IMG/VR virus record: IMGVR_UViG_3300027976_002493
Coordinates: 1 to 53,803 of that record
Direction: 5' to 3' (one strand)
DNA from: a virus
Lineage: Duplodnaviria; Caudoviricetes
Length of the DNA stretch: 53,803 nucleotides
The notes under the pieces were generated by a model that did no database searches, was not told the origin of the DNA, and saw only the letters and a list, made by a program, of their open reading frames with translations. This document shows, one piece after another, positions 1 through 27,387 of this stretch (positions are counted from its first letter, which is position 1; every line of letters begins with the position of its first letter). Position numbers and translations under genes: made by a program.

Positions 1-1044
1 CAACAGCTATTCTTAGCAGAACCAGCATCCCAGACCATAAACGACTGGACTATATTACCAGACTTTAGGAAGAAGATAAGCTTAGGAGATGTTCATAAAC
101 ATGTAGGGGTATCCGGAGAGACAGGCTCTGTAGATTATACTAACCTTTTAGTCAATAAGATAAACAGAGTAGGATTAGGAGACCCAGGTAGAAGGTACCG
201 GGATAGAAGCAACCTGTATACCTCGGACCTGCAAAGTATAGACAAGGTAGCAGCTATGCCCCTATACAGAGGTTCTATAGCAGCGAAAGAAGGATACACT
301 AGAGACTTTATAAGATTTAGATTCGAAGTATTGGATAACGATAACGATGATACCACAGCATCGTTATCCAAATCTACCAATATACATTTTAGAGCTTTTC
401 TAGGAGCGATAACAGATAATTTCGGGGGAGAGTGGGCCGCTACTAAATTCGTAGGTAGAGGAGACAACTTCTATAGCTACACAGGCTTCACCCGAACTAT
501 AAGCCTAAGTTTTAGAGTCCATCCACAGACCCGAGACGAGATGAAGGCAATGTATCAAAAACTCACCTACCTTGCATCAACACTGGCACCTGACTACAGT
601 TCAAAAGGCGGTTACATGAGAGGTAATATAGTAAGACTGGTTGTAGGAAGTTACCTCTACAGGATACCCGGATTTATAACAAGTTTATCCTACACGGTAC
701 CCGAAGATGCTTCCTGGGAGATAGCATATAACGAACCGGAGTCCGGTGAAGAAATTACTCAACTGGAAACACCAAGGCACTTTGATGTACAGTTAAGATT
801 CACTCCTATACACGACTTCGCACCGCAGTTAATGGACGGTACCCGCGACTATGCGTTATTTACACCAGCAGGTACCCCAGAAACAGTATCTCAGAGGAAT
901 CCATATCTTCCTCGAGCTAGAGACGTTACCAATGCCGATGGGAAAGTTCTTCATAAAATGGGAGAAAATATTATACAAAGTAGTGTAGCACTTGCAGAAG
1001 AGGTAGTAGGAGTAGAAGAAAGTACCAAAAGTGAGAAACAGTAA
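1..1044 (+). CDS. Tail tube/baseplate-type virion protein, 5'-truncated by window edge
   Basis: Frame of ORF 256..1044 is open back to base 1. Has tube-like motifs (F.GR.D.FY.Y.GFTRTISLSF, PGFITSLSY) and sits upstream of a LysM gene as in contractile-tail modules. Confidence 0.6.
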   Translation, partial: QQLFLAEPASQTINDWTILPDFRKKISLGDVHKHVGVSGETGSVDYTNLLVNKINRVGLGDPGRRYRDRSNLYTSDLQSIDKVAAMPLYRGSIAAKEGYTRDFIRFRFEVLDNDNDDTTASLSKSTNIHFRAFLGAITDNFGGEWAATKFVGRGDNFYSYTGFTRTISLSFRVHPQTRDEMKAMYQKLTYLASTLAPDYSSKGGYMRGNIVRLVVGSYLYRIPGFITSLSYTVPEDASWEIAYNEPESGEEITQLETPRHFDVQLRFTPIHDFAPQLMDGTRDYALFTPAGTPETVSQRNPYLPRARDVTNADGKVLHKMGENIIQSSVALAEEVVGVEESTKSEKQ

Positions 1045-3216: not shown

Positions 3217-5187
3217 ATGCAAGAAAATAACAAATCTTTCATAGAGAAAATAAAAAAAGACTCCTACAGGGGCTTCAACGCTATAGAATATGCAGACGGG
3301 GGTATGGAATTATACCTTTCATTCAAAGCCCTTCTAGAGTGGACAAACATAAATGTAAACCTATTCTCAGACGATACGGAAGTAATAAAAATAGATTTTG
3401 AATCAAACAAGCCTATGTTTATGTACTCCACTTCTATCTCTGCAAACCTGCAGAAGTGTTATATTCGAAACCAATACCTACACACAACACAAGGAACATT
3501 AAACTCATCCACTTCATCCCCATCACTTCCTTCATCCTTTGGGGATATAGATAAGTTTGATGGAACAGAATATAACAGTCTTAAGAGTGAGCTGACTAAG
3601 TCCGGGGAAAAAGCTTCCGGTACAGCAGCTTCAAAATACATATACCCTTATATCGGAAATATTAATAACATATACCTAAACGCAGCATTTATTTCCGAAC
3701 AACTACATAAGCTCTCTGACAACGAAAGTAATAAAGTATCAATACGTGAATTTCTACAAGGGTTATGTAATGGGGTAAACAAGGCATTAGGGAGCATCAA
3801 TGACCTACAAGTAATCGGAGACGTTGACGGAGAGCAGAATATATTAACTATAGTAGATTTCCAACAAGTACGAATAAAGAACCTAGTTAGCAACCTAAGT
3901 ATCGATAAGCGAAAAACTGCAACCATACAAGCTCAAGGATTAAAGAGCATGGTCACAAATATATCTGCACAATCTACGATCACTCCGGACCTAGCTACTG
4001 TAATATCTATAGGAGCACAGGCAAACGGAGAAGCTCTAGGAGAAGAAGCTGTGTCTTTTTCGAGACTGAGTAAAGGATTAACGGATAGAATATACCCCAC
4101 TAAGCAAATAAGTGTTGAAACAAAGGAAAAACAGGAAGAAAGGAGAGAAAAAAAAGCTGCTAAAACTGAAGAAAATTTTAGAGAGAGCTTAATAACCTAT
4201 GCAAAATTAGTTAAAAACCAACAACCAAACTCAACAGATTTTTTCGGTCCGGTTAAGTTGGAGACAGTGGATAAAGCAGGTATGGAGAATACACCAGTTG
4301 AGCTATATAAATACCTGCTAGGTAAATTCACACACTCAAACCAGACGAACACAGGATTCATACCTATCAAACTAGACATCTCCATATACGGTATGAGCGG
4401 AATAAAGATATTTCAGAAGTTTAAAATCACAGATGACGTATTACCTTTCTCATACGATCAGAAATATGATTTTACAATAACTGGGGTAAGCCACACTGTT
4501 GACAACTCAAAATGGGTAACAAACATCTCCTCCGTAATGGGGTTAGAGCCGCCGCCTGATAAGGGAGCAGAAGACCTTACTAACGAAACATTCGCTCCTG
4601 AACTGGTACTAGATGGAACTGGGGATAACGGAACCGGTACGGTAGTATATGTTAAACGTGTAGTAAAATTCACTGTAGGTACTGAAGAGATAGACGTTAC
4701 AAACGGAGAAGTACCTGATGAATACATGAGAGAGTTAAATCAAACGTTATTCCCTTATAGTAAATGGAAAAGTCCATCCTTGAAAAGTGACGGAGGAAGA
4801 GTGCGATTACTAAAGCCGGTAATGGCAAACCTGGAGAAAATGCTCACAGCATATGCTAAAGATAACCCGAACATACCTTTACTAATAAATTCCGCATTCC
4901 GAACTTACGCAAAGCAACTAGAACTGAAAAACCTCTGGACCAGAAAAGGAAAACCTACCAATGCAGCTACCCCCGGGCAATCAGAACATGGATTCGGTAG
5001 GGCAATAGACTTCGGTAATGCTAGTGGAGCAAAGCTGGAAGTAGCTATGTCGCAATATAAATGGCTTAAGGTAAATGCTGGGAAATACGGTTTTAAAAGG
5101 TTACCAAACTGGAAAGACAAAGGAGACCTTGAGAACTGGGAAGCCTGGCACTGGCAAGACGTAAGACCGACTACGATAGATGTATAA
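3217..5187 (+). CDS. Virion (baseplate hub) protein with C-terminal peptidase M15 (VanY/D,D-peptidase-like) domain
   Basis: SAFRT..Q, SEHGFGRAID (SxHxxGxAxD) and EAWHW zinc-peptidase motifs at the C-terminus. Confidence 0.8.
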   Translation: MQENNKSFIEKIKKDSYRGFNAIEYADGGMELYLSFKALLEWTNINVNLFSDDTEVIKIDFESNKPMFMYSTSISANLQKCYIRNQYLHTTQGTLNSSTSSPSLPSSFGDIDKFDGTEYNSLKSELTKSGEKASGTAASKYIYPYIGNINNIYLNAAFISEQLHKLSDNESNKVSIREFLQGLCNGVNKALGSINDLQVIGDVDGEQNILTIVDFQQVRIKNLVSNLSIDKRKTATIQAQGLKSMVTNISAQSTITPDLATVISIGAQANGEALGEEAVSFSRLSKGLTDRIYPTKQISVETKEKQEERREKKAAKTEENFRESLITYAKLVKNQQPNSTDFFGPVKLETVDKAGMENTPVELYKYLLGKFTHSNQTNTGFIPIKLDISIYGMSGIKIFQKFKITDDVLPFSYDQKYDFTITGVSHTVDNSKWVTNISSVMGLEPPPDKGAEDLTNETFAPELVLDGTGDNGTGTVVYVKRVVKFTVGTEEIDVTNGEVPDEYMRELNQTLFPYSKWKSPSLKSDGGRVRLLKPVMANLEKMLTAYAKDNPNIPLLINSAFRTYAKQLELKNLWTRKGKPTNAATPGQSEHGFGRAIDFGNASGAKLEVAMSQYKWLKVNAGKYGFKRLPNWKDKGDLENWEAWHWQDVRPTTIDV

Positions 5188-5205
5188 CTGAGAGATAAAT
5201 GTAAA

Positions 5206-5796
5206 ATGTATTACCCGAAATCTAAAATAATTACTAACCTGTATGCAAACGGAAATGACCTTGTCTACATAGATACAGAACAGCCGTATGTAGGTTATTA
5301 CCACATACTTTCGAACGGTAACATTACCACCGGTAAAACACCTAGTGATGGACAGCAACGTAGACTCAAACCTTCAAATGCTGCAATCTTTGTAGATAGT
5401 ACCGCTGATACATCGACAGTACAGGCAACAGATATACCTTCAAATACTACATACGATTTTGTTAGAGAAAGGCAGCAAATAAAAAGACCAAACCTTGAGC
5501 TTATAGAACCGCAATATACTAGACCACTAGGCAGCTTTCCCTCCTTTACCCGTTATTTCTTAAGGAGAACAAACAACGCAATATTTACAGAAGTGAGCGC
5601 AAAAGATTATATAAAAATACAGTCCAAAAACGCTTTATATAATTGGGGGATATACACTACCTTTCAAATGCCATGGACAACATCCGGTGTAGATGTAGAA
5701 GGTATCAATAGACGTATGGTAGAGTTGACAGAAAAAAGGTTTAAAGTATACGGTTTCTCAAAATACATCACAGACTATACTGAATTCACAGTCTAA
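5206..5796 (+). CDS. Hypothetical protein, probably virion-associated
   Basis: 196 aa ORF closing the structural block. Confidence 0.6.
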   Translation: MYYPKSKIITNLYANGNDLVYIDTEQPYVGYYHILSNGNITTGKTPSDGQQRRLKPSNAAIFVDSTADTSTVQATDIPSNTTYDFVRERQQIKRPNLELIEPQYTRPLGSFPSFTRYFLRRTNNAIFTEVSAKDYIKIQSKNALYNWGIYTTFQMPWTTSGVDVEGINRRMVELTEKRFKVYGFSKYITDYTEFTV

Positions 5797-5797
5797 G

Positions 5798-5826
5798 TTG
5801 ACTATCACATTTACTTTTCTTATATT
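5798..5826 (+). promoter_or_regulatory. Bacteroidota-type promoter (TTG-N20-TATATT) heading the replication operon
   Basis: TTG 5798-5800, TATATT 5821-5826; same geometry recurs about 20 times in the window. Confidence 0.75.
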
Positions 5827-5838
5827 AAAGAAAAGGTT

Positions 5839-7110
5839 ATGTTTTGGTTGGTAGAGACACAGGAACAGTTTGATGAGTTAAAAAGTCATAGGTTAACAGG
5901 TATAATAGGTATACTTGTTAATAGACACCCTGATGGCCACCCGGCTATTTACTCACCTTTGAGTCTTTATATAAAAGATGTAGTGACTCAAGAAGGATAC
6001 CTTATAAACTTCCTACACAGTGAAGCGATGAAGGTAGACCCTCTTCAAGTTAAGGAGTGGTTGGACAGCCTAGATAAGGTATATACACCGGACCGGAAAG
6101 CTTTTAATTACTTCCACTATAGTAAAAAGACGATTACTTTACCTACAATAAAAGAGGAAACCGTACAGGCACTAACTTACTTCTCTAGAAGATATTACAA
6201 CGACCCGGACCAAGGTAATATTGTACCGATAGTCAAGCACTACGAATACTGTGAGAAGATAGCAAACCAATATTTAGAAGTGATAGACTCACTTACACCG
6301 GACGATTTTCGAAAAAAGGTAGAAGATATATTCTGGGTTATAGAAAGAAACGGGTTAAAGGTGAGTGATTCACTAGAGGAGTACTTTAACATGGAGAGAC
6401 CCTTTATTTCCCTATATAACAACTATGTTTTAACCCAGTATCACCTCGATAATACAACAGGCAGACCCTCTAACAATTTTAATAGTATTAACTTCGCAGC
6501 ACTAAATAAAGAAAACGGTTGTAGAAGTGTATTTATCCCTAGAAACGAACTCTTAATGGAGATAGATTTAGTTGCCTACCACCCAACACTTATCTCTAAA
6601 CTGGTAAATTACGAATCACCTACAGGAGACATCTACGAAGACTTTGGAAAAATTTACGGAATGAATAGGGAGGAATCGAAGAACTTAGTATTTAAACAAC
6701 TATACGGAAACGTCTTCGAACAGTATCGAGATTTTACATTTTTTAAGTTAACAACCAAGTACATAGAGGAACTTTGGAGTAAGTATGAAAACCAGGGTTA
6801 TATAGATGGGGTAGACGGTAGGTATAGATTCTATAGCAAAGACCTACTGAATATGAGCCCTCAGAAACTATTTAATTACATAATACAAAACTATGAGACT
6901 GTAAATAATGTTGGTTTATTGGAAAAAATACTTTATCTCTTAGAAGGTAGGAAGTCTAAAGTAGTACTATATACCTACGACGCAATACTACTAGACCTAG
7001 CAAGAGAAGATAAAGATACCCTACGTGAAATAGTAGAAGTATTTAGAGATGAAAACTTAAAAATAACAATGAATGTTGGAAAAAACTACAACTCTTTACA
7101 GCCCTTCTGA
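5839..7110 (+). CDS. Small divergent family A DNA polymerase-like protein
   Basis: TTGRPS, motif A IDLVAYHP, motif B REESKNLVFKQLYG, NYIIQ, motif C LYTYDA; only 423 aa. Confidence 0.8.
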   Translation: MFWLVETQEQFDELKSHRLTGIIGILVNRHPDGHPAIYSPLSLYIKDVVTQEGYLINFLHSEAMKVDPLQVKEWLDSLDKVYTPDRKAFNYFHYSKKTITLPTIKEETVQALTYFSRRYYNDPDQGNIVPIVKHYEYCEKIANQYLEVIDSLTPDDFRKKVEDIFWVIERNGLKVSDSLEEYFNMERPFISLYNNYVLTQYHLDNTTGRPSNNFNSINFAALNKENGCRSVFIPRNELLMEIDLVAYHPTLISKLVNYESPTGDIYEDFGKIYGMNREESKNLVFKQLYGNVFEQYRDFTFFKLTTKYIEELWSKYENQGYIDGVDGRYRFYSKDLLNMSPQKLFNYIIQNYETVNNVGLLEKILYLLEGRKSKVVLYTYDAILLDLAREDKDTLREIVEVFRDENLKITMNVGKNYNSLQPF

Positions 7111-7144
7111 TATGTATGATAAAGAAATACTAGAAAATCAGGAA

Positions 7145-7534
7145 ATGCTGAAGAATAAATTACTATGTACCTTTGTACACCTTGATGACCTAGAAAACTT
7201 CATTCAAGACATTACCTCAAGACATTCTATACTCTACGGAAAGATATTCGTATTAGGTATAAAAGACTCAGAGGAACTAGCCTGTACCTACAACCTAGAA
7301 GAGCCTAATATAGATACCCTTCCGGATAATACGATACTGGTGCATAGAAAAAAAATCTCAAATTCGTTGTATACGATAAACGCTCTTAACGAACTTATAA
7401 AAAGTCTAAACGGAGGAGTAGTAGATACAGGATTTAGAGTAGATTGGAAGCATTATAGAAATACAATTCTACTGACAACTCAAGGAGAGTTAAAATTCCT
7501 ACGTACAACAATACACAAAATAATAAACGTGTAG
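7145..7534 (+). CDS. Phage hypothetical protein
   Basis: ORF 7073..7534; ATG 7145 (or 7112) preferred because it avoids overlap with the upstream gene. Confidence 0.6.
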   Translation: MLKNKLLCTFVHLDDLENFIQDITSRHSILYGKIFVLGIKDSEELACTYNLEEPNIDTLPDNTILVHRKKISNSLYTINALNELIKSLNGGVVDTGFRVDWKHYRNTILLTTQGELKFLRTTIHKIINV

Positions 7535-7540
7535 TAAAAG

Positions 7541-7569
7541 TTGCTTTTAGGCAACATAAGTTCTATATT
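7541..7569 (+). promoter_or_regulatory. TTG-N20-TATATT promoter
   Basis: TTG 7541-7543, TATATT 7564-7569, upstream of the SSB gene. Confidence 0.7.
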
Positions 7570-7589
7570 AAATTAAATAAGTTATACTA

Positions 7590-8417
7590 ATGAACATAAG
7601 TGAAATTAAGTCAAAGCTACAAGCTTTGCAAACTCAGAAAAATGCTAGCTCTTCAGGGGGCAGTACCAAAGACACATTCTATAGACCGGGTGTAGGTAAG
7701 GAAGTTATTAGAATGGTACCTTCTAAGTTCAACAAATCTAATCCATTCTCGGAATTGTACTTTCATTACGGTATACATAAGTTCCCTATGTTTTCGCCAA
7801 TTAACACAGGAGATAAAGATCCGATAGTTGAATTTGTTAAACAGTTACGTGAGACTAACGACAAAGACAACTGGAGACTTGCTAGGAAACTAGAACCTAA
7901 AATGAGAGTATTTGCACCAGTAATCGTAAGGGGTAAAGAAGACGAAGGAGTTAAGTTATGGGGCTTTGGAAAAGAGATTTACATGGAGCTTCTTTCTATG
8001 GTAGAAGATGAAGACATAGGAGACTATACTGATATTGTTACCGGGAGAGACTTAACACTAACCACCCTAGATTCATCTCAGACAGGTACAGGTTACAACA
8101 AGACAACAATAAGAGCAAGAACTGCAGAGACACCTTTAGCAGAGAACAATGAAATAGTTAAGAGTGTTTTAGAGAATCAACCTGATCCAATGGAATCTTT
8201 CACTATGATGGAGTTCGATAGGATGAAGGAAATATTACATGAGTACCTAGCACCAAGCGAAGAGGAGTCTGATAACCCTTCCCCCACAGTAGCATTCGAT
8301 ACCCCATCATCCCCTACGAATAAGTTCTCTTTAGAGAAGCAAGGTAAAGGTACAGAATCTAAGGTAGACAAGTTCGAGAGTCTTTTTAACGAAAAAGCCG
8401 ACGACTTACCCTTTTAA
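7590..8417 (+). CDS. Single-stranded DNA-binding protein (T4 gp32-like)
   Basis: gp32-like core (PF.ELYFHY, VKLWGFGK, TD..TGRDL), acidic tail ending DDLPF, adjacent to RecA. Confidence 0.8.
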   Translation: MNISEIKSKLQALQTQKNASSSGGSTKDTFYRPGVGKEVIRMVPSKFNKSNPFSELYFHYGIHKFPMFSPINTGDKDPIVEFVKQLRETNDKDNWRLARKLEPKMRVFAPVIVRGKEDEGVKLWGFGKEIYMELLSMVEDEDIGDYTDIVTGRDLTLTTLDSSQTGTGYNKTTIRARTAETPLAENNEIVKSVLENQPDPMESFTMMEFDRMKEILHEYLAPSEEESDNPSPTVAFDTPSSPTNKFSLEKQGKGTESKVDKFESLFNEKADDLPF

Positions 8418-8424
8418 GTAACAT

Positions 8425-9474
8425 ATGGCGAAGAAACAAAGTAAATCACTATCTGCAGCCGTATCCGCTGAGCTTAAAAAAGGCTTTGATTTAGAGAAAT
8501 TTAAAGATAGTAAGATGTTAAGTAAGAACGTCAGATTCAAGGACCAGAAATGGATACCTTTATCCCCAGCGTTTCAAGAAATAACCTCTATACCGGGTAT
8601 ACCGATGGGACATATAACTATGTTGAGAGGTCATTCCGACACCGGTAAAAGCACCGCATTACTAGAAGCAGCAATCTCTGCACAACAGGGAGGTATACTA
8701 CCTGTCTTTATCATTACAGAGATGAAATGGAACTGGGAACACGCCATACAAATGGGGTTACAGGTTGAAGAGTTAGTAGATGAGGATACAGGGGAAGTTT
8801 TAGACTACCAAGGATCTTTCATATATGTAGATAGGGAAACCGTAAACACCATAGAAGATGTAGCTAGTTTTATCTTAGATTTAATCGATGAGCAGAAGAA
8901 AGGAGCACTTCCTTATGACCTTCTATTCTTATGGGATTCCGTAGGATCTGTACCTTGCGAACTGTCAGTACGTTCAAATAAAAATAACAATGAATGGAAC
9001 GCAGGAGCAATGTCTACACAATTCGGAAACCAGGTAAATCAACGAATCGTAATGTCCAGGAAAGAGTCCTCTCCGTACACAAACTCATTAGTAGTAGTAA
9101 ACAAAGTATGGACAGCAAAACCAGAAATGCCAATGGGACAACCTAAGTTAGAGAATAAGGGAGGGAAAACCATGTGGTATGATGCCACCTTAATAATTAC
9201 GTTCGGGAACATATCTAATGCTGGAACTTCAAAGATTAAAGCAATCAAAAATGGTAAGCAAATAGAGTTCGCTAAGAGAACTAATCTACAGGTTGATAAG
9301 AATCACATCAACGGAATAACAACCCGGGGTAAAATTATCATGACACCTCATGGTTTCATTCTAGATGATGATAAGGCACTTAAGGACTATAAGGCAGATA
9401 ATCAAGAGAACTGGGAGAGAATTCTAGGAGGCGGAGACTTCGAGATAGTAGAGGAGTTAGAAGAAGGTATTTAG
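8425..9474 (+). CDS. RecA/UvsX-like recombinase
   Basis: Walker A GHSDTGKS, Walker B LFLWDSVG, VNKVW, KGG..MWY RecA-family motifs. Confidence 0.85.
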   Translation: MAKKQSKSLSAAVSAELKKGFDLEKFKDSKMLSKNVRFKDQKWIPLSPAFQEITSIPGIPMGHITMLRGHSDTGKSTALLEAAISAQQGGILPVFIITEMKWNWEHAIQMGLQVEELVDEDTGEVLDYQGSFIYVDRETVNTIEDVASFILDLIDEQKKGALPYDLLFLWDSVGSVPCELSVRSNKNNNEWNAGAMSTQFGNQVNQRIVMSRKESSPYTNSLVVVNKVWTAKPEMPMGQPKLENKGGKTMWYDATLIITFGNISNAGTSKIKAIKNGKQIEFAKRTNLQVDKNHINGITTRGKIIMTPHGFILDDDKALKDYKADNQENWERILGGGDFEIVEELEEGI

Positions 9475-9504
9475 AGTACCTTAAATACTGTAAAGTTTTA
9501 ATGG

Positions 9505-9528
9505 TCCTTGCTTCTGCGAGGGTTTTTT
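9505..9528 (+). terminator. Intrinsic terminator overlapping the next promoter
   Basis: ccttgc-ttct-gcgagg hairpin plus T-run; its TTG (9508-9510) lies 20 nt before TATATTT at 9531. Confidence 0.6.
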
Positions 9529-9543
9529 AATATATTTAAAAAT

Positions 9544-10584
9544 ATGTCACAGAACTTAAGAGCAATGCTCGCAAATATTACGGAGCAAGAAAGCGCACCC
9601 GTAATAGAGAAGAAATTCCATTCACGGGTCCTTATTATAGATGCACTAAACCTATTCTTCCGGAACTTTGCAACAATAAACTTTTTAAATAAGGAAGGAG
9701 TTCCAATCGGAGGAATGGCAGGCTTTATAAGATCTCTAGGTTCATTAATCCAACTAATACAACCAACCGGGGTCTATGTGATATTCGACGGAGTAGGTTC
9801 ATCGACCAACAGAAAGAACCTCCTACCCGAGTATAAATCAAATAGAGGTATAACTAGGGTAACCAACTGGGATACTTATGATAATATAGAAGAGGAGGGA
9901 GAATCTAAAGTAGATCAAATAACACGTCTTATACATTACCTTCAATGCCTACCGGTGAAGACCGGAATGATAGATAAAGCCGAAGCAGATGATATGATTG
10001 CATACATGGCTCTAGAATTACCGAAAAGAGAAAACTCAGATGTAGTGATAGTATCCTCAGATAAAGATTACTTACAACTAGTAAACGATAAAGTAACTGT
10101 CTACAGGCCTATAGGTAAGAAGTTCTATAAACAGAAAGAAGTAGCAGCGGAATTCGGAATACATTCAGATAATTTCATAATATATAAAACACTATTAGGA
10201 GATAGGTCAGATGCAATAAACGGAATAAGAGGATTAGGTCCAAAGACACTGTTAAAGAGATTCCCAGAACTAGTGGACCATTCTATAACATTGGAAGATA
10301 TATTTGAAATATCCGAAGCTAAACTTACCCAACATAAGGTTTACGCACAGGTACTCCAAGCTGAGAATATGTTAAGGAATTCCTATAAGCTTATGGATTT
10401 AAAAAATCCGATACTAGATCAAAGACAAAAAGAGTACATAGAGACACTCCTTGCAGAAGATAACAACCCGTTTCATAAGAAAGAGTTCCTACAGCTTTAT
10501 AAAATAGACGGAATCGATCATTTTATTAGGGATATAGAAGGCTGGGTAACTGATACTTTTTTTAAGCTAGGTAATTTAAAATAA
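9544..10584 (+). CDS. 5'-3' exonuclease / flap endonuclease (T4 RNase H, PolI N-terminal-like)
   Basis: LIIDALN, IFDG, YKSNR, EADD, SSDKD, GDRSDAINGIRGLGPKT; start moved to ATG 9544 behind the promoter. Confidence 0.92.
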   Translation: MSQNLRAMLANITEQESAPVIEKKFHSRVLIIDALNLFFRNFATINFLNKEGVPIGGMAGFIRSLGSLIQLIQPTGVYVIFDGVGSSTNRKNLLPEYKSNRGITRVTNWDTYDNIEEEGESKVDQITRLIHYLQCLPVKTGMIDKAEADDMIAYMALELPKRENSDVVIVSSDKDYLQLVNDKVTVYRPIGKKFYKQKEVAAEFGIHSDNFIIYKTLLGDRSDAINGIRGLGPKTLLKRFPELVDHSITLEDIFEISEAKLTQHKVYAQVLQAENMLRNSYKLMDLKNPILDQRQKEYIETLLAEDNNPFHKKEFLQLYKIDGIDHFIRDIEGWVTDTFFKLGNLK

Positions 10585-10628
10585 GTTCGTATATTAAAGT
10601 TAAATAAAGGTAGAATATAAAAATAGTT

Positions 10629-12017
10629 TTGGCAGCATTAAAAGTCTTATCAGACTACGGTCCGGTATTCCAAGTAAAAGCGATTGGAGCGCTCCTCTCA
10701 AAGAAGGAATTCATACAGAATATAAACGACATATTATCGGACGAACACTTCCCGAACCCGGCACACAAGTGGGTAATAAATCAAATACTCAGCTACTGGC
10801 ATAAGTATCACACAGTAATCTCTATGGAGATCTTATCCATAGAAGTTAAGAAATTACAGAATGAAATATTACAAACATCCATTAGAGAACAGTTAAAAGA
10901 AGCATACAGGCACTCTGATGCTGAGTTAGCATACGTAGAAGAGGAGTTTACCACCTTTTGCAAAAACCAAAAACTAAAAGGAGCTCTTCTAGATTCAGTA
11001 GATCTACTAAACTCAGGAGAGTATGACAGCATTAGATTCCTAATAGATAATGCACTAAAGGCAGGTACTGATAAGAATATCGGACATGAATACAATAAAG
11101 ATATAGAAACCCGGTATAGGGAAGATTCAAGACCTACTATTCCAACCCCTTGGCCAGATATTAATAAAATCATGCAAGGAGGCTTCGGACCAGGAGATTT
11201 AGGTATAGTTTTCGGAAACCCGGGAGGAGGAAAAAGCTGGCTCATGGTAGCCATGGCAGCTCACGCAGTACGGCTGGGGTATAACGTAGTGTACTACACT
11301 CTAGAACTTGGAGAAGACTATGTAGGTAAAAGGATTGACTGCTACCTTACAGGAGTGGATATTGAACATATAGGAGAACATAGAAAAAAAATAGAGGAAA
11401 TGGTCGAAACACTCCCCGGAAACCTCATAATAAAAGAATACCCGCCTAAAATGGCATCAGTAGCCACTATAAGAGCACACCTGCAGAAATGTACCGACTC
11501 AGAAGTAAAACCAGACCTAGTGATTATAGATTATATAGATTACTTAAGAGGTAGTGTAAGTAATAAATTTGCAGAGAGGAAAGATGAAATAGACGATGTA
11601 TATGTAGCATGTAAGGGATTAGCTAAAGAACTTAAAATACCTATAATATCACCTTCACAAGTAAACAGGATGGGAGCTAAGGACGATATAATAGAAGGAG
11701 ATAAGGCTGCAGGATCTTACGATAAGATAATGGTTTCTGATTTCTGTATGTCGTTGTCAAGGAAGAAAGAAGATAAGTTAAACGGAACCGGTAGAATTCA
11801 TATCATGAAAAACAGGTACGGAATGGACGGAATGACATTTGGAGCAAAGATGGATACCTCTAATGGACATGTTGAACTTACTGAAGATATTCCAACCTAT
11901 GATGATTTCCTACCTACACCCGGTAATGGTAACGCTAGGACTTTCAATCTTATGGACAGCTTCGATAAAAAAGAACTATCCAAAAAATTTACACAGCTTT
12001 CCACGTTTTCTAAGTAG
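10629..12017 (+). CDS. DnaB/gp41-like replicative helicase
   Basis: GNPGGGKS Walker A, TLE, IIDYID, SQVNR, KNRYG; TTG start. Confidence 0.92.
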   Translation: MAALKVLSDYGPVFQVKAIGALLSKKEFIQNINDILSDEHFPNPAHKWVINQILSYWHKYHTVISMEILSIEVKKLQNEILQTSIREQLKEAYRHSDAELAYVEEEFTTFCKNQKLKGALLDSVDLLNSGEYDSIRFLIDNALKAGTDKNIGHEYNKDIETRYREDSRPTIPTPWPDINKIMQGGFGPGDLGIVFGNPGGGKSWLMVAMAAHAVRLGYNVVYYTLELGEDYVGKRIDCYLTGVDIEHIGEHRKKIEEMVETLPGNLIIKEYPPKMASVATIRAHLQKCTDSEVKPDLVIIDYIDYLRGSVSNKFAERKDEIDDVYVACKGLAKELKIPIISPSQVNRMGAKDDIIEGDKAAGSYDKIMVSDFCMSLSRKKEDKLNGTGRIHIMKNRYGMDGMTFGAKMDTSNGHVELTEDIPTYDDFLPTPGNGNARTFNLMDSFDKKELSKKFTQLSTFSK

Positions 12018-12083: not shown

Positions 12084-14309
12084 ATGAGAGGATCAAAATT
12101 ACTATCAAACATAAAGTTTTACACTGACTATTCTAAATGGGATGAAAAGCTAGAAAGAAAACAATCCTGGGAAGAGAGGGTAGAAGATGTTATGAGAATG
12201 CATCAGGAAAACCCTAAATTTAAAGAAGCATTCAAAAACCCTTGGTTTGCTGACATGTTTGAAAAAACTAAGGACTTATATAAAAGAAAAATGATATCGG
12301 GCTCGCAAAGAGCTTTCCAATTCAATGAATATCATATAGGAAGACATAATTCTAAGATATACAACTGCACTGTAACGTACTGTGATAGGCCTAGGATGTT
12401 CCAAGAAGCAATGTATCAACTGCTATGCGGGTGTGGGGTTGGAGTGTCATTCTTAAAAAAGTTTACCAACCAACTCCCTAATATTTCTTCTAGAGATAGG
12501 GGGACTAAAACATTTACAATAGCGGATGACATAGAGGGTTGGGCAAATGCTGTAGGTGTATTAATGTCTTCTTATTTTGAAGGGGAAGTCCCCTTCCCTG
12601 AATACCAAAGGTATATAATTAACTTTGATTATTCTCAAATTAGACCAGAAGGTGCTTACATCTCAGGCGGTTTTAAAGCCCCGGGACATACCGGATTAAA
12701 GAGGAGTCTTGAGAAAATAGAAAACTTACTAAACAAAACTTTAAGTAGGGGTCAATTTAAAATAACACCTATCATACCTTATGATATTATCATGCACTGT
12801 GCTGATGCTGTTCTAAGTGGCGGAGTTAGAAGAAGTGCTACTATAGCCTTGTTTGATTTTGATGATGAGGAAATGATGAATGCTAAAGTAGGTAACTGGT
12901 TTAGTGAAAACCCACAGAGAGCAAGGAGTAACAACTCAGCTCTATTAATTAGAAGTCAAATTACTAAAGAACAATTTGATAATTTAATGGAAAGAACTAA
13001 GCAATTCGGTGAGCCGGGTTTTATCTTTTCTGAGAGTGAGGACTTTCTCTACAACCCCTGCGTTGAGATAGGTATGTTAGCTAAACTTAAAAGGCTAGAA
13101 GAGGAAATATCAGGGTGGCAGAGTTGTAATTTATCAGGTGTGATTGGGAAGTATTCTACTTCATTGGAGATATTTGTGGAACAGGCTGAGTGTGCTTCTT
13201 TTATAGGAACACTGCAAGCCTCTTATACTAATTTACGCTACTTGGGAGAAGTATCGGAAGAAATTCATAAAAAAGAGGCCTTAATTGGTGTTTCCATTAC
13301 AGGGTTTATGAATTCTCCTAAAGTACTACTAAACCCCGATTACCTTAGAACTGCTGCTTTAGCAGTTAAAGATGTTAACAGAAAAACAGCATTTATTATA
13401 GGAATAAATGTTGCAGCTAGAACTACTTGTGTAAAGCCATCGGGAAATGAAAGTACAATGTATGAAACTGCTTCCGGTATACATGGAGAACATTCTGAAG
13501 ATTATTTTAGAATAGTTCAATTGAATAAGGAAGATGATATTGCTAAAATGATAGCATCTAAAGTTCCTGATATGATAGAAGAAAGTGTTTGGAGTGCAAA
13601 TAAAACTGATTATGCTATCTTTGTCCCTATTAAAACTAAAAAAGGTTCAATATACAAAAAAGACCTATTAGGTGTAAAACAGCTAGAAATAGTAAAATTA
13701 GTACAGGAGAACTGGGTGGAGGTAGGTACAAATATTGAATTATGTTCCCACCCAAAGTTAAGACATAATGTTTCAAATACTATATCAGTGGATAACTGGG
13801 AACAAGTGGGTGATTTTATTTTTAATAATAAAGAAGTATTCGCAGGTATCTCATTATTATCTCATACGGGGGATAAAGTTTATAATCAAGCTCCATTTAC
13901 AGAGGTAATAGATTCAACAAAAATAGTTGAGAAGTATGGAGATGCCTCCATGTTTGTATCGGGGTTAATAGTTGATGGTTTAGAATTATTTAATAATAAC
14001 CTATGGCAAGCATGTGATTTTATATCCCAAGAAGATAGAAAATTAGAAGGTACCAACCAACAGATATTACTAAAACAAACCTGGATTAGTAGAGCAAAGA
14101 AATTTGCTAAACGTTACTTCAAAGACATTGAGGATTTGATATTCTGTATGAAGGATGTACACCTTTACCATAAATGGGTAAATATTGAACGTGTTCAAAG
14201 AAACCTAGATATTGAACCCTTATTATCTCAAACTAAACCCGAATACACTGCAATTGATACTCTAGGTGCTCAATCTTGTTATGGAGGAGCTTGTGAGATA
14301 GAATTTTAA
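12084..14309 (+). CDS. nrdJ: Class II (adenosylcobalamin-dependent) ribonucleotide reductase, monomeric RTPR-type
   Basis: YNC, GCGVG, GGVRRSA, RARSNNS, NPCVEI (thiyl Cys), CNL, VKPSG, C-terminal CYGGAC; no beta-subunit gene adjacent. Confidence 0.85.
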   Translation: MRGSKLLSNIKFYTDYSKWDEKLERKQSWEERVEDVMRMHQENPKFKEAFKNPWFADMFEKTKDLYKRKMISGSQRAFQFNEYHIGRHNSKIYNCTVTYCDRPRMFQEAMYQLLCGCGVGVSFLKKFTNQLPNISSRDRGTKTFTIADDIEGWANAVGVLMSSYFEGEVPFPEYQRYIINFDYSQIRPEGAYISGGFKAPGHTGLKRSLEKIENLLNKTLSRGQFKITPIIPYDIIMHCADAVLSGGVRRSATIALFDFDDEEMMNAKVGNWFSENPQRARSNNSALLIRSQITKEQFDNLMERTKQFGEPGFIFSESEDFLYNPCVEIGMLAKLKRLEEEISGWQSCNLSGVIGKYSTSLEIFVEQAECASFIGTLQASYTNLRYLGEVSEEIHKKEALIGVSITGFMNSPKVLLNPDYLRTAALAVKDVNRKTAFIIGINVAARTTCVKPSGNESTMYETASGIHGEHSEDYFRIVQLNKEDDIAKMIASKVPDMIEESVWSANKTDYAIFVPIKTKKGSIYKKDLLGVKQLEIVKLVQENWVEVGTNIELCSHPKLRHNVSNTISVDNWEQVGDFIFNNKEVFAGISLLSHTGDKVYNQAPFTEVIDSTKIVEKYGDASMFVSGLIVDGLELFNNNLWQACDFISQEDRKLEGTNQQILLKQTWISRAKKFAKRYFKDIEDLIFCMKDVHLYHKWVNIERVQRNLDIEPLLSQTKPEYTAIDTLGAQSCYGGACEIEF

Positions 14310-19810: not shown

Positions 19811-19820
19811 AAACTTTTAG

Positions 19821-19850
19821 TTGCAAAGTCTTAAAATTATTCGTATCTTT
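19821..19850 (+). promoter_or_regulatory. TTG-N20-TATCTTT promoter
   Basis: TTG 19821, ttcgTATCTTT 19844; ATG only 5 nt later, so a near-leaderless mRNA. Confidence 0.75.
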
Positions 19851-19854
19851 AGGT

Positions 19855-20130
19855 ATGGAAGTAAAAGAGAAATACGTTTATGTCCCGAAAGTATATGAAG
19901 CCCGGTCTGTTTACACTTTAGAAATGGAAAACGAAGACGGAACAACAAGTGTATGGAAGTACGACAAGAAGAAGTATCCGTACGGGCCTTACTCTACAAC
20001 TACTAAATACCCACCGGGTTATAAATTTCACCGAGACGTGAAAGTACCAAAATCACAAAGAACATACTTAAATCCAAAAACAGGGAGGGAAGTCTCCTAT
20101 GCACGGGCTAGAAACCTAGGATTAGTATAA
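19855..20130 (+). CDS. Hypothetical basic protein
   Basis: ORF behind its own promoter. Confidence 0.65.
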   Translation: MEVKEKYVYVPKVYEARSVYTLEMENEDGTTSVWKYDKKKYPYGPYSTTTKYPPGYKFHRDVKVPKSQRTYLNPKTGREVSYARARNLGLV

Positions 20131-20140
20131 ATAGAAACAT

Positions 20141-20566: not shown

Positions 20567-20568
20567 AG

Positions 20569-25047: not shown

Positions 25048-27387
25048 ATGGTAAAGGTTATACAAAAAGAATATATTAACGTCAGGACACGAGAGGAACT
25101 GCTAGTACTCTGGAAGGAATTAGAAAGTCATGATAAGATCGCAATAGATACTGAGACTACCTCATTAAACACTCGGAAGGGTGAGATAATAGGTGTTTCC
25201 TTCTCTACAGAAGAAGGTAACGGTTGGTATGTACCTTCTAGGGTATGGAATAAAGAGACGGAGACGTTAGATGAGGTATTTATAGATGGAGTAGGTGTAG
25301 ACAGTATAACGGTTAAGTTACTAAAGACTTTAAAAGGTAAGAAGTTAATCGGACACAATCTTGCATTTGATTGCAAATTCATTATGTATTTCTACGGTGT
25401 TAACTTAATACCGGATATATGGGTAGACACAGCACTACTAGTACACACAGTAAAAGAAGAAGGGGCCTTTGGTTATGGAAATCCTTTCGGGTTGAAATCG
25501 ATAGCAATAATGATTCAAGATGAAATCGGATTAGATATAAAAGAATCAGCAAATCAGGAACAGTTAGAACTTAAAGCCTCCATTAAGGAGAACGGTGGAG
25601 TTACTACAAGAGTAAACTATGAAATCTACAAAGCAGATATAGGTGTATTATCAAAATACGCAGCAGCGGATACTGATCTAACTCTAAGAGTATGTAACCA
25701 CTTCCTAAAAGTACTAAAAGAGGAGAGGTTAGAGAAGTTTTTCTTTGAGGATGAGGTAATGCCCCTGTATAGAGAAGTAACTATACCTATGGAGATAGAA
25801 GGTATAGCATTAGATATACCACTTATAGAACAAACCAGGGAAGATATAACTAAAGATCAAACTAAATACAGAAGTTCAGTAATGACAGAACTACTAAAGC
25901 TAAGCGCAGTTAAGGAGTGGGTAATGGACTCAGCCTTAAAAGCTTTCCCACCCTCACCGAGAGGTAAATGGGCATCAACTTTAGTAGAACTGTACGGACT
26001 TCCAATGCCTAAAACTGCTAGAGGTTATTCGCTCAAACAATCTAACGTTGAAGCATTAGAAGAGCACCCGGTCCGGGAATACTTACTGAGTGGAGATTTA
26101 GAGCATTTAGAAGAGGAAGTCGTACTTAGAGTCTCGATGAAACTTTGGAAGGAGTCTAACGACGGGGTGTTGATTAATATACAATCTAAAAAGCAATTAG
26201 CAGAAATAACGTTCAACTACTTAAAAGAGAAGCCTCTGTCAAGAACTGCAAAAGGACAAGCACAGTTTGACGATAATACAATTCAGGCATTATCCGACAA
26301 GTATGAATGGTTACAGAATCTACGACTATACAATAAACTACTCAAGATTAAATCAACCTATATAGATAGATTTTACGCTGCTGCAGAAGATGGGAGGTTC
26401 TACCCATACTTTAAACAACACGGAACTGTGTCCGGAAGGTATGGATCTGACCTACAACAACTACCTAAACCGAAAGAAGAGGGAGAGGCAGATCCAATAA
26501 TCGTAAAGTATACAAATACAATTAGATCTTTCTTTATTTCAGATCCCGGCACTATCTTCATCGATAGCGACTACACTTCCTTAGAGCCCCATCTATTCGC
26601 ATCAGTATCAGATGATAAAGCACTGCAGGAGATTTTTAATAAGGAGCATGACTTCTACTCTACCGTAGCAATACGAACCGAGAAGTTAAACGAACAGACA
26701 GAAAAGTACCCTAATGGAGTATCTGCCGATACCAAAGCACCTAACTACCTTAAGAACTTAGATGCACCTAAGAGAAACACAGCTAAAGGGTATTCATTAG
26801 GTATAGCATACGGAATGTCTGCATATGCCTTAGCAATGTCCCTTGGAGTATCTCAGGCAGAGGGTAAGAGGTTACATCAAGGTTATCTTGATGGATTCCC
26901 CGGAGTTGCTAAATGGATCAATGATTCGAGAGATTCCTTCAAAAGAGACGGTTACATCAGGAACGAAGTAGGGCGTATCAGACATTTAGAGAAAGGTAAA
27001 GCAGTTTACGATATATTCGGAGAGTCTATTATGGATTGGAAGGTACGAGGGGACTTAGGTAGAGACTACGGAAAAGAACAAGTACTACAATGGTACAGGG
27101 ATTATAAGAACGCTTTAAACAATTCGCTTAACTTCCAGTTGCAGAGTCTCGCAGCATCTGTAGTAAATAGAGCAGCTCTAGTAATTAATAGAAGGTTTAA
27201 AGAGTTAGGAATAGACGGAGTAGTAGTAGCACAGATACACGATCAGTTGATAATGCGAGTACCGGAGGATAAAGCAGAAGAATGCTTACCGTGGATCCAG
27301 GACCTAATGGAGAATACTACGCAGATGAAAGGTGTAACATTAAAAGCACCTCCAGCCATAGGAAGGAATTTTTCTGAAGCCCATTAG
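25048..27387 (+). CDS. polA: Family A DNA polymerase with 3'-5' exonuclease domain
   Basis: ExoI IDTET, ExoII HNLAFD, ExoIII YAAAD; GTVSGR; motif A DYTSLE; motif B RNTAKGYSLGIAYG; motif C QIHD. Confidence 0.95.
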   Translation: MVKVIQKEYINVRTREELLVLWKELESHDKIAIDTETTSLNTRKGEIIGVSFSTEEGNGWYVPSRVWNKETETLDEVFIDGVGVDSITVKLLKTLKGKKLIGHNLAFDCKFIMYFYGVNLIPDIWVDTALLVHTVKEEGAFGYGNPFGLKSIAIMIQDEIGLDIKESANQEQLELKASIKENGGVTTRVNYEIYKADIGVLSKYAAADTDLTLRVCNHFLKVLKEERLEKFFFEDEVMPLYREVTIPMEIEGIALDIPLIEQTREDITKDQTKYRSSVMTELLKLSAVKEWVMDSALKAFPPSPRGKWASTLVELYGLPMPKTARGYSLKQSNVEALEEHPVREYLLSGDLEHLEEEVVLRVSMKLWKESNDGVLINIQSKKQLAEITFNYLKEKPLSRTAKGQAQFDDNTIQALSDKYEWLQNLRLYNKLLKIKSTYIDRFYAAAEDGRFYPYFKQHGTVSGRYGSDLQQLPKPKEEGEADPIIVKYTNTIRSFFISDPGTIFIDSDYTSLEPHLFASVSDDKALQEIFNKEHDFYSTVAIRTEKLNEQTEKYPNGVSADTKAPNYLKNLDAPKRNTAKGYSLGIAYGMSAYALAMSLGVSQAEGKRLHQGYLDGFPGVAKWINDSRDSFKRDGYIRNEVGRIRHLEKGKAVYDIFGESIMDWKVRGDLGRDYGKEQVLQWYRDYKNALNNSLNFQLQSLAASVVNRAALVINRRFKELGIDGVVVAQIHDQLIMRVPEDKAEECLPWIQDLMENTTQMKGVTLKAPPAIGRNFSEAH

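Follow-up and report, generated by a model that had tools for sequence, protein, structure and literature searches.

The window analysed here is a freshwater metagenome fragment of 53,803 nucleotides; it makes up a whole IMG/VR record, is estimated to be 33% complete and contains no tRNA genes. The sequencing runs listed for it are four DNA metagenomes and no RNA. Two family A DNA polymerases are encoded in it (Table 1). For the shorter one, an earlier note on this DNA had described a 423-aa ORF with particular motif strings, and both are present, the translation of codons 6565-6591 being in agreement. The same note had placed this polymerase at the head of a block for SSB, RecA, exonuclease, helicase and RNR, which we recovered as gp32-like, RecA/UvsX-like, 5'-3' exonuclease, DnaB-like and RNR matches. 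The complete PolA that it had put 18 kb away starts 17.9 kb downstream. This regular enzyme has an intact ExoI motif and a Glu at the steric gate, matches Klenow at E 3.4e-33 with DYTSLE on DYSQIE, and adjoins GroES and GroEL amid chaperonin and nucleotide-metabolism genes. The short gap before the shorter polymerase holds a sigma-70-like site. Seven such sites occur in the region, which is not above the number in shuffles (10.2 +/- 3.8), and a promoter at this position is suggestive only.

Exonuclease-dead, thumb-truncated PolAs of ~160-kb phages that also encode a regular polymerase have been described computationally as divPolA1 (Yutin, Tolstoy, Mutz, Wolf, Krupovic and Koonin 2024, Virol J 21:200, PMC11348598). 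Flavobacterium phage vB_FspM_immuto is a divPolA1 genome named in that paper, which describes the context of divPolA1 as conserved and that of the regular polymerase as variable; in its abstract, the role of main polymerase is given to the regular enzyme. We found the same replication gene order in the window, in immuto, in Mel-JY01 and in IMG/VR loci, so that the order of the module is kept from Flavobacterium phages to a Microcystis phage. A regular polymerase is present in all five large divPolA1 genomes, as a PolA in two and a PolB in three.

Table 1. Features of the window, in window positions.
Feature	Position	Strand	Evidence and remarks
Candidate sigma-70-like promoter match TTGACT, 17 nt spacer, TATATT	5798..5826	+	in 42-nt gap before polymerase start; 10/12 positions
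divPolA1-type family A DNA polymerase	5839..7110	+	423 aa; 3'-5' exonuclease-fold domain, predicted dead (~1-170), thumb stump, palm, fingers
Motif A DLVAYHPTL, residues 243-251	6565..6591	+	catalytic D243; H248 codon 6580-6582 at steric gate
Motif B (O-helix) REESKNLVFKQLYG, residues 277-290	6667..6708	+	R277, K281, F285, Y289
Motif C YTYDAILLD	6970..6996	+	Y380-D381-A382; TYDA = residues 379-382
Conserved small partner gene	7073..7534	+	153 aa from first ATG; overlaps polymerase 3' end by 38 nt
gp32-like single-stranded-DNA-binding protein	7590..8417	+	PF08804 E 7.3e-14; phrog_1192
UvsX/RecA-like recombinase	8425..9474	+	phrog_97 E 1.9e-17; RecA E 1.3e-5, just under Pfam cut-off
5'-3' exonuclease (FEN / Pol I N-terminal type)	9508..10584	+	PF02739 E 5.9e-33
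DnaB-like replicative helicase	10629..12017	+	PF03796 E 5.4e-23
Ribonucleotide reductase	12084..14309	+	phrog_367 E 2e-78; no Pfam family at E<=0.001
Regular full-length PolA	25048..27387	+	779 aa; PF00476 E 4.6e-59; PF01612 (exonuclease domain) E 9e-14

Fold, active site and family of the short polymerase

The short polymerase escapes most searches that start from its single sequence. It matched no Pfam family at E<=0.1 and did not reach the gathering score of PF00476, NCBIfam assigned no family, PHROGs gave only weak DNA-polymerase matches to the C-terminal part (5.2e-7 and 6.4e-4), and phmmer against the PDB returned Taq alone, at E 0.57. A 26-sequence profile (A1) found no PDB match at E<=1, and its hhalign comparison with the window's full PolA was uninformative (probability 0.86, 29 columns); a match to the PDB needed a divPolA1 profile of 148 members, which hit the Klenow fragment at E 8.6e-9. 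Since the family profile finds Klenow and the immuto homologue passes PF00476 (42.7 bits against a cut-off of 34.3), the Pfam miss of the window protein reflects a failure of sensitivity and not a different fold.

Structure prediction and alignment against Klenow, which the earlier note had suggested, gave a Pol I large-fragment fold. The predicted model (pLDDT 96.7, pTM 0.93) shares its two-domain scaffold with the large fragments of Klenow, Bst and KlenTaq: VIA-align paired model residues 1..421 with 300..876 of the 576-residue Bst chain (Z 26.6, rmsd 3.5, 393 of 423 residues aligned), and Klenow aligned over 406 residues at Z 22.1. Each of the 42 Foldseek matches listed among the top 50 is a family A DNA polymerase (Klenow E 1.4e-15), as are ranks 1-15 of a structure search independent of Foldseek, with Z from 23.4 to 11.1. 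The single-subunit RNA polymerases of yeast mitochondria (Z 8.7), T7 (Z 7.7) and human mitochondria (Z 7.1) score far lower, and the N-terminal domain has an exonuclease fold and is no promoter-binding domain, so that a T7-type RNA polymerase fold was rejected.

Residues 1 to ~170 of the model match stand-alone DEDD 3'-5' exonucleases with Z from 10.6 to 8.1, ExnV1 and RNase D both reaching 10.6. The earlier note, which had recognised no exonuclease motifs, was thus right for the sequence (no Pfam match at E<=0.1) but not for the modelled structure, in which the DEDD fold is kept. At the position of the first ExoI Asp the window protein has Leu, and 130 of 145 family representatives have Ile, Leu or Val; the ExoII and ExoIII positions were assigned by eye, without residue-level superposition. 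Judged by these residues, the domain is an exonuclease kept as a fold and catalytically dead. An inactive exonuclease domain is also found in Bst and Taq. For divPolA1, replacement of all three catalytic exonuclease Asp has been described (PMC11348598). The thumb is reduced as well: from E169 of the ERNG motif to R209, the TGR arginine, the window protein has 41 residues (family median 42), compared to 128 in the matching Klenow span E541..R668, so that ~86 thumb residues are missing.

In the palm and fingers, the 148-member profile alignment sets the family pattern D-y-d-a-Y-H-l-r-L onto Klenow DYSQIELRI and thereby D243 onto D705 and H248 onto E710 (Klenow numbering derived with a chain offset of 323). 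The claim of a His at the E710 position is confirmed by this alignment and by pairwise alignments of the immuto homologue, which put His on the same Glu of Aquifex Pol I (8jrb, E 3.3e-5) and, with a weaker match (E 0.2), of Taq. In motif B, R277, K281, F285 and Y289 correspond to R754, K758, F762 and Y766, and in motif C, Y380-D381-A382 correspond to H881-D882-E883; the notion that both catalytic Asp and the motif B R/K/F/Y are kept while motif C reads YDA for HDE is therefore correct. R209, N346 and Q350 are the equivalents of R668, N845 and Q849. Hence divPolA1 shares with Pol I large fragments the Asp pair, the O-helix Lys/Phe/Tyr and the minor-groove readers R668/N845/Q849, and differs in having His for Glu710, Tyr for His881, Ala or Ser for Glu883 and mostly Tyr for Arg754. 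Also in contrast to Pol I, it has no fused 5'-3' exonuclease, which is encoded by a separate gene three genes downstream.

We show that the ORF is a divPolA1. It matches the immuto gene annotated as 'DNA polymerase family A' (tblastn E 6e-54, 99% coverage) and is 32% identical to immuto gp001 end to end (BLASTP E 1e-63). It further shares with divPolA1 the palm catalytic residues, the truncated thumb, the dead exonuclease, the position in the module and the co-resident regular polymerase, and no difference in kind was found. Almost certainly it is another member of this family and not a new kind of enzyme. The family is large: at least 590 IMG/VR contigs carry a relative and, with a threshold of E<=1e-3, 1566 clusters (50% identity) were counted. 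The related-loci search with alignment A1 found six MAG contigs, and megablast of 5000-12000 against the phage collection gave no match. Among six module proteins, divPolA1 is the least conserved, with a median identity to the window of 39% versus 47-74% for the others.

Across the 145 representatives, the catalytic residues D243 (145) and D381 (144) are conserved along with R209 (145), K281 (144), Q350 (144), Y289 (140) and F285 (133), which suggests a competent active site. The steric gate is His in 142 and Gln in three, never Glu. The His being this prevalent, the exchange of Glu for His at the gate is real and under selection. Three further changes in the nucleotide pocket accompany it, at the equivalents of R754 (Tyr in 90, Arg in only 16), H881 (Y380 in 142) and E883 (Ser in 107, Ala in 35). 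The combination His-Tyr-Tyr-Ser occurs in 65 representatives and His-Tyr-Tyr-Ala in 21.

divPolA1 does not fit the TV-Pols. These minimal PolA-like enzymes, which viruses and mobile elements encode and which are predicted to prime and extend, keep an RxxxK finger motif and a two-helix thumb and are linked to D5-type helicases or integrases, never to nuclease domains (Iyer, Abhiman and Aravind 2008, PMC2579912). Both groups are without working proofreading, but divPolA1 has mostly lost the Arg (kept in 16 of 145, Tyr in 90), has a stump for a thumb, retains an exonuclease-fold domain and is linked to a DnaB-type helicase.

The small partner gene

Besides its separate exonuclease, divPolA1 differs from Pol I large fragments in having an obligatory small neighbour gene. 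Of 84 divPolA1 loci, 80 carry a homologue of this gene downstream of the polymerase; three of the rest leave no room for it and one has it at +1507, so that it is found in 81 of the 81 loci with room. Its start overlaps the polymerase end in 65 of these, lies within 30 nt in 11 and farther away in five. In the window, additional in-frame ATGs occur at 7112 and 7145. Conservation is higher in the partner than in the polymerase (medians of 56% versus 39% identity to the window, 34 loci), and the invariant basic and aromatic residues of the partner include H91-R92-K93-K94, Y55, Y100 and W125. The partner search yielded at least 8000 clusters at 90% identity. Ten longer proteins in which the partner is fused to assorted neighbour domains, nine of them single-member clusters and one with seven members, are taken as read-through or assembly artefacts.

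The partner belongs to no Pfam, PHROG or NCBIfam family. Across 71 aligned members Pfam returned DUF5866 alone (17 of 71, best E 0.01), the partner profile reached a best E of 0.4 against the PDB, and a search of the ESM Atlas gave no usable match. Its model (pLDDT 83.7, residues 1-21 below 50) has an alpha/beta order of elements, mostly strands. Foldseek found no PDB match for this model at E<=0.001, and the one real match in BFVD (E 3.9e-12) is itself a family member without characterisation, all others lying above E 0.03. The wide VIA search reached a best Z of 6.2 and none >=8, which is below the noise level stated for the tool; at this level the best matches are ferredoxin-like, ACT or RRM-type domains, and no OB-fold chain is among the best 50. 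The only matches that span the whole partner core, likewise below noise, are viral origin-binding/Rep domains (SV40 T-antigen, Z 5.6 and 5.2; smacovirus Rep, Z 5.4), and CRESS-virus Rep proteins recur among the weak BFVD matches. We regard this possible likeness as a lead only. The partner was also considered as a substitute for the missing thumb and rejected, as its model consists mostly of strands whereas the Pol I thumb is helical. From the gene linkage, we propose that it may be a subunit of the polymerase.

Possible roles of divPolA1

In our interpretation, divPolA1 is an accessory DNA polymerase for short patches, devoid of proofreading and working with a small partner, a reading to which we give about an even chance. 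It would be a DNA-templated DNA polymerase on the Pol I large-fragment scaffold, would act as a two-subunit enzyme with the ~150-aa protein from the overlapping downstream gene and would work inside the phage gp32/UvsX/FEN/DnaB module. Its short, non-proofread synthesis could fill gaps at the ends of Okazaki fragments together with the separate 5'-3' exonuclease or, alternatively, extend primers or recombination intermediates, while copying most of the ~160-kb genome would fall to the regular polymerase with its proficient exonuclease. His248 would pack against C2' of the incoming sugar, keep the preference for dNTPs and alter the charge of the pocket. We infer an accessory rather than a main role from the regular polymerase in five of five large genomes and from divPolA1 being the least conserved protein of the module. 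The earlier note had called the enzyme specialised, for primer synthesis, repair or the handling of modified G; a second, specialised family A polymerase does head the module, but the arguments for primer synthesis and modified G did not hold up, and repair or short-patch synthesis is the most plausible of the three roles.

In regard to the chemistry of the enzyme, R754 is a triphosphate ligand in Klenow. With its equivalent mostly Tyr and that of E883 Ser or Ala, the activity of divPolA1 could be low or different in kind. Taken further, the loss of the R754, H881 and E883 equivalents in most members and the quick evolution of the protein would fit a pseudo-polymerase without catalytic activity, retained as a scaffold that binds protein or DNA. 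Given that the metal-binding Asp pair and the equivalents of K758, R668, Q849 and Y766 persist among lineages with only ~30% identity, in 140 to 145 of the 145 representatives, we consider this extremely improbable. The pocket changes could instead make divPolA1 tolerant to rNTPs or even RNA-synthesising, if replacement of Glu710 and Glu883 opened the pocket: the gate Glu is absent from all 145 representatives, Glu is also gone from motif C, and four pocket positions have changed together. The earlier note had argued in this direction from the effect of losing E710. The study of rNTP use by Klenow reportedly concerned E710A, that is, loss of the side chain. [quoted passage not shown] 2021, PMC8485763), although Pol III alpha has an unrelated fold (family C) and serves as an analogy only. 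Use of rNTPs therefore does not follow from the substitution, and His248 probably still blocks them. In addition, the F762 and Y766 equivalents are kept and, as outlined above, the fold is far nearer to DNA polymerases than to single-subunit RNA polymerases and has an exonuclease fold in place of a promoter-binding domain, so that we rate this explanation as distinctly improbable. An adaptation to 7-deazaguanine DNA, either copying it or building it with a preQ1 derivative for G, would agree with the QueF, QueC, QueE, QueD, FolE, DpdA-like and DpdN-like genes of the window and with immuto, in which all G is replaced by fdPreQ1 according to the preprint of Hutinet et al. Yet the link between divPolA1 and these genes is loose, as QueC occurs in three of five divPolA1 genomes and is absent from Mel-JY01 and LR756508. 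The DpdA-like transglycosylase of the window is 59% identical to that of immuto, and enzymes of this type are held to insert the base into DNA (Hutinet et al. preprint); the one in the window would do so after replication. The changed residues, moreover, would face the sugar and triphosphate and not the major-groove edge that bears the 7-substituent. The modified-G idea is thus weak and such an adaptation very improbable.

Other alternatives assign divPolA1 a different place in replication. Together with its partner it could be a PolA-derived primase or primase-polymerase that, on a single-stranded template held by the partner, begins chains de novo (of DNA, or mixed) and so serves the neighbouring DnaB-type helicase. 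CCPol-MP of SCCmec, one of the PolA-SSB primases known from mobile elements of Bacillota, works in a similar way (Bebel et al. 2020, PMC7581432; Rice 2023, PMC10061031). Both systems have a family A polymerase without a working exonuclease followed by a gene for a small protein and later a helicase gene, an order seen in all 81 loci with room, with the partner overlapping or within 30 nt in 76 of them. The thumb is shortened in both; in CCPol and in RNA polymerases of the T7 type the final helix of the thumb is shortened, presumably giving room to the initiating triphosphate (PMC7581432, PMC10061031). The invariant basic and aromatic residues of the divPolA1 partner would also suit template binding. 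Nevertheless, CCPol keeps the steric-gate Glu (E174) and uses dNTPs only, so that the His is no mark of its class; MP is an OB-fold SSB, whereas the divPolA1 partner is predicted to be alpha/beta without an OB match among its best 50 (weak scores, all Z <=6.2) and has no detected sequence similarity to CCPol-MP-type partners; and MP and the other PolA-SSB partners stem from mobile elements of Bacillota, not from large lytic phages (PMC10061031). The remark that no primase is visible is true of the window but lends no support to priming: immuto, which is syntenic and complete, has a DnaG-like primase at 104446..105366, DNAG_N is matched at E<=0.01 in four of five large relatives (above the family cut-off in three), and with the record only 33% complete the lack of a primase is an artefact of the fragment. 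The co-occurrence with DnaG that had been proposed as a check hence counts against a primase, a role that we regard as quite unlikely. No less doubtful is a role of divPolA1 with its partner, as a processivity or DNA-clamping subunit, as the main replicative polymerase, the regular enzyme being left with repair or late functions. The conserved context of divPolA1 as opposed to the variable one of the regular polymerase (PMC11348598) means that it could be the core polymerase of the replisome; it comes first in a module of conserved order, and the regular polymerase varies in family among relatives and sits amid chaperonin and nucleotide-metabolism genes, in the window as in that paper. Against this stand the lack of proofreading and of nearly the whole thumb in a phage of ~160 kb, the fastest evolution among the module proteins (median identity 39%), the retention of a proofreading polymerase in five of five complete genomes examined, and the abstract of PMC11348598, which names the regular enzyme the main polymerase. 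A last and bolder proposal, which we hold to be unlikely, sees in divPolA1 and its invariably linked ~150-aa partner the two subunits of an initiator polymerase that has so far gone unrecognised in large aquatic phages. By means of the missing thumb and a pocket that appears remodelled (His for Glu710, Tyr for Arg754 and His881, Ser/Ala for Glu883), it would start chains or extend RNA primers with mixed use of rNTPs and dNTPs and hand over to the proofreading polymerase. If so, phages would have an equivalent of the Pol alpha step in which the template is supplied by the partner.

Apart from these roles, including the accessory one that we prefer, the findings bear on the divPolA1 family as a whole. 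The near-invariant gate His, the accompanying pocket changes, the very large family size and the fixed small partner gene are added here to the description of the family; sections 13-14 of PMC11348598 mention neither a His at the steric gate nor a linked small gene, nor a family size beyond 14 phages. The questions raised can be tested, since phage immuto is in culture on Flavobacterium sp. LMO8. The fixed pairing with a very conserved, family-less small protein suggests an undescribed holoenzyme. In conclusion, divPolA1 is abundant, and in large phages of Bacteroidota and cyanobacteria, both from fresh water and from the sea, it heads the replication module. Going by sequence and model, its steric gate is non-acidic and its thumb is missing, in a family A polymerase that occurs naturally. 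It would thus lend itself directly to testing how the family A fold selects sugars and grips DNA, and polymerases that tolerate unusual substrates might be obtained from it.

Family membership and gene neighbourhood

We identify the window polymerase as a new member of divPolA1, a family of phage polymerases described computationally in 2024. As set out in the text of Yutin et al., divPolA1 occurs in 14 phages with genome sizes of 155-190 kb, including the immuto phages; the enzyme combines conserved palm residues with a truncated thumb and an inactivated exonuclease, the downstream replication genes keep their order, and a regular polymerase of family A, B or C adjoins chaperonin genes (PMC11348598). 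The window protein has all of these features. [quoted passage not shown] The window is the entire IMG/VR record (53.8 kb, estimated completeness 33%) and carries nearly all of its genes on the + strand. Tail and baseplate genes and then a gap of 42 nt precede the polymerase ORF; the gap holds a sigma-70-like match, and such matches are no commoner in the polymerase region than in shuffled sequence. Downstream of the small partner ORF, genes for a gp32-like SSB, a UvsX/RecA-like recombinase, a 5'-3' exonuclease, a DnaB-like helicase and a ribonucleotide reductase follow in this order.

Coordinates of the features discussed
Feature	Position	Strand	Remarks
Tail/baseplate-region protein	3217-5187		656 aa
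divPolA1-type polymerase	5839..7110	+	423 aa ORF
Dead exonuclease domain of divPolA1	5839-6350		
Partner ORF	7073..7534	+	153 aa; overlaps polymerase 3' end by 38 nt
Ribonucleotide reductase	12084-14309		741 aa
7-deazaguanine modification genes	18893-24786, 42548-43018, 46114-47873, 51549-52094		
Phosphoribosyltransferase and dCTP-deaminase/dUTPase-like gene	23710-24786		Between Que genes and regular PolA
Regular PolA	25048..27387	+	779 aa, exonuclease domain included; then GroES and GroEL
GroES and GroEL	27737-29653		Immediately 3' of regular PolA
Glycosyltransferase/aminotransferase/acetyltransferase block	31867-39378		~8 kb

The reductase matches PHROG 367 at E 2e-78 and no Pfam family at E<=0.001. 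At its position immuto encodes class I NrdA and NrdF and Microcystis phage Mel-JY01 a B12-type (class II) enzyme, so the reductase has been swapped within a conserved module. The chaperonin genes are followed by a PD-(D/E)XK nuclease and the block of glycosyltransferase, aminotransferase and acetyltransferase genes, and this arrangement, starting with PolA, is also present in immuto. The tail/baseplate-region protein has a C-terminal VanY-type D-Ala-D-Ala carboxypeptidase domain (E 5.3e-16) and is probably a virion-borne cell-wall hydrolase.

Judged by sequence similarity, the divPolA1 family extends far beyond 14 phages. Relatives of the window protein, about 420 aa long, number in the thousands: at E<=1e-3 we found 3886 of 7339 candidates as clusters at 90% identity and 1566 clusters at 50% identity, 674 of the latter at E<=1e-30. 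Relatives are encoded on at least 590 IMG/VR contigs and on six MAG contigs, the latter mostly in Bacteroidota bins. Of the proteins in the replication module divPolA1 evolves fastest: it has a median identity of 39% to the window, compared with 48% (gp32), 51% (5'-3' exonuclease), 59% (DnaB) and 74% (UvsX).

Active site and predicted structure

Alone, the window protein is too divergent to match any Pfam family at E<=0.1, and among PDB sequences it reaches only Taq (E 0.57). A profile built from 148 relatives reaches E 8.6e-9 with the Klenow fragment, about 2e-7 with Bacillus fragments and about 1e-5 with KlenTaq; its alignment to Klenow (chain offset 323) gave the equivalences tabulated below. 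In pairwise alignments the immuto homologue likewise places its His on the gate Glu of Aquifex Pol I (E 3.3e-5) and, at lower significance (E 0.2), of Taq, and codons 6565-6591 translate as DLVAYHPTL. On this evidence, the residues assigned in the earlier note are correct: His248 occupies the E710 position, and the small PolA with a His gate described there is confirmed.

Klenow equivalences and conservation among 145 sequences (the window protein and the best 150 representatives of 50%-identity clusters, minus six shorter than 380 aa)
Window	Klenow	Conservation
R209	R668	Arg 145/145
D243	D705	Asp 145/145
H248	E710 (steric gate)	His 142, Gln 3, Glu 0
R277	R754	Tyr 90, Arg 16
K281	K758	Lys 144/145
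F285	F762	Phe 133/145
Y289	Y766	Tyr 140/145
N346	N845	
Q350	Q849	Gln 144/145
Y380	H881	Tyr 142/145
D381	D882	Asp 144/145
A382	E883	Ser 107, Ala 35

By these counts, the surroundings of the incoming sugar and triphosphate have been remodelled at four positions together, and the residues for chemistry and for reading the minor groove have been retained. Arg at the R754 position is a minority trait kept in the window's subclade. The His gate and its three companion changes are thus family-wide and add to the published description of divPolA1.

The structural model is very confident (pLDDT 96.7, pTM 0.93), and predicts a DNA polymerase fold rather than an RNA polymerase one. All 42 Foldseek matches listed among the first 50 ranks are family A DNA polymerases (Klenow, E 1.4e-15), and VIA-align superposes residues 1..421 on chain positions 300..876 of the Bacillus large fragment (Z 26.6, rmsd 3.5 A, 393 residues). 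In a Foldseek-independent search, family A DNA polymerases occupy ranks 1-15, with M. smegmatis Pol1 at Z 23.4, phage DpoZ at 23.1 and Pol gamma lowest (12.0 and 11.1); Klenow and T7 DNA polymerase, the comparison proposed in the earlier note, score 22.1 and 20.5. Single-subunit RNA polymerases reach only 8.7, 7.7 and 7.1. Because residues 1 to ~170 match stand-alone DEDD exonucleases (ExnV1, RNase D, Z 10.6; WRN, 8.7), the N-terminal third is predicted to be a proofreading-type domain. The window protein has Leu at the position aligned with the first ExoI Asp, where 130 of the 145 representatives have Ile, Leu or Val. The dead domain also has near-invariant polar residues (H34, 137/145; H60, 144/145; K87, 136/145; E169, 140/145) and Glu or Asp at position 62 in all 145. 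From the ERNG motif to the TGR arginine the window protein has 41 residues and Klenow 128, a loss of about 86 residues from the thumb.

The downstream partner

Partner loci were collected from the best 80 of the 590 loci plus three more distant phages, a sample tilted to close relatives. A homologue lies within 1.5 kb downstream in 80 of 84 loci with a + strand polymerase; of the others, two stop at the polymerase, a third runs on for 369 nt, and in the 484-kb phage LR756508 the homologue lies at +1507. By this linkage, the downstream ORF of ~150 aa is an obligate companion of divPolA1. The 81 copies represent 74 distinct sequences. In 65 loci the longest-ORF start of the partner overlaps the polymerase end; in 11 the gap is at most 30 nt, and in five it is wider. 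Five of the 81 loci (L082 (G002), L043, L056, L079, L090) contain one or more extra ORFs in between, with offsets of 100 to 1506 nt, so the pair tolerates separation in some lineages.

Over 34 loci, the partner has a median identity of 56% to the window and the polymerase one of 39%, so the partner is the more conserved of the two; an HRKK motif and many aromatic residues and Asn are invariant in it. It matches no family in Pfam, PHROG or NCBIfam, and its relatives form at least 8000 clusters. The model is alpha/beta (pLDDT 83.7) with the first 21 residues disordered; structural searches returned nothing above noise, the top matches, to ferredoxin-like, ACT or RRM-type domains, reaching Z 6.2.

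Two features, the His gate as a conserved trait and the obligate partner, were not found in the literature. 'Steric gate', 'ribonucleotide' and 'translesion' are absent from the text of PMC11348598, whose Fig. 5 alignment or supplements may show the His; the name divPolA1 is confined to versions of that one work, and broader literature searches returned nothing on the family. Both features deserve a bench test.

Possible functions of divPolA1

The earlier note read the enzyme as specialised for primer synthesis, repair or handling of modified G, an interpretation that is partly supported. Its statement that loss of E710 allows rNTP incorporation refers to a Klenow result in which, reportedly, the gate side chain was removed. 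Unlike that removal, His retains bulk at the gate. Gln is its sole alternative among the 145 representatives, and the gate modelled for Pol III alpha is a His (PMC8485763); together with the predicted DNA polymerase fold these points argue against rNTP use. The case for a role with modified G is weak. QueF, QueC, QueE, QueD and FolE form a full 7-deazaguanine DNA-modification set, and the window also has DpdA-like and DpdN-like genes (59% and 51% identical to those of immuto, the latter a formyltransferase), so the window DNA is probably modified with fdPreQ1, as measured for immuto (Hutinet et al., preprint). However, QueC occurs in only three of five large divPolA1 genomes (immuto, two complete IMG/VR genomes with terminal repeats, Mel-JY01 and LR756508), and DpdA acts on DNA. 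The phosphoribosyltransferase beside the preQ synthesis genes could convert a free base to a nucleotide, which, if true, bears on whether the modification enters DNA via the dNTP pool.

As the earlier note stated, no primase was found in the window, which is a fragment. This does not extend to its relatives, as DNAG_N is matched at E<=0.01 in four of the five large genomes (above the family cut-off in three); in immuto the DnaG-like gene sits far from the replication module. The closest functional precedent is the CCPol-MP primase, which combines a PolA without exonuclease, a small neighbour and a helicase (PMC7581432, PMC10061031), and this precedent keeps a primase-polymerase reading of divPolA1 and its partner alive. 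CCPol differs in that it keeps the steric-gate Glu, whereas divPolA1 has His, and its partner is an OB-fold SSB; moreover, divPolA1 phages encode their own DnaG-like primase.

A regular polymerase is kept in all five large genomes (PolA in two, PolB in three), and the regular PolA of the window has the gate Glu and an intact ExoI motif (Asp-x-Glu). Its residue equivalent to Klenow F762 is Leu, and its motif C reads His-Asp-Gln in place of His-Asp-Glu. Overall, divPolA1 is most likely an accessory, non-proofreading, low-grip DNA polymerase that, judging by gene linkage, would work as a pair with the small protein. Both would operate within the gp32, UvsX, FEN and DnaB module, where divPolA1 may fill gaps or extend primers and recombination intermediates, and genome copying would be left to the regular polymerase.
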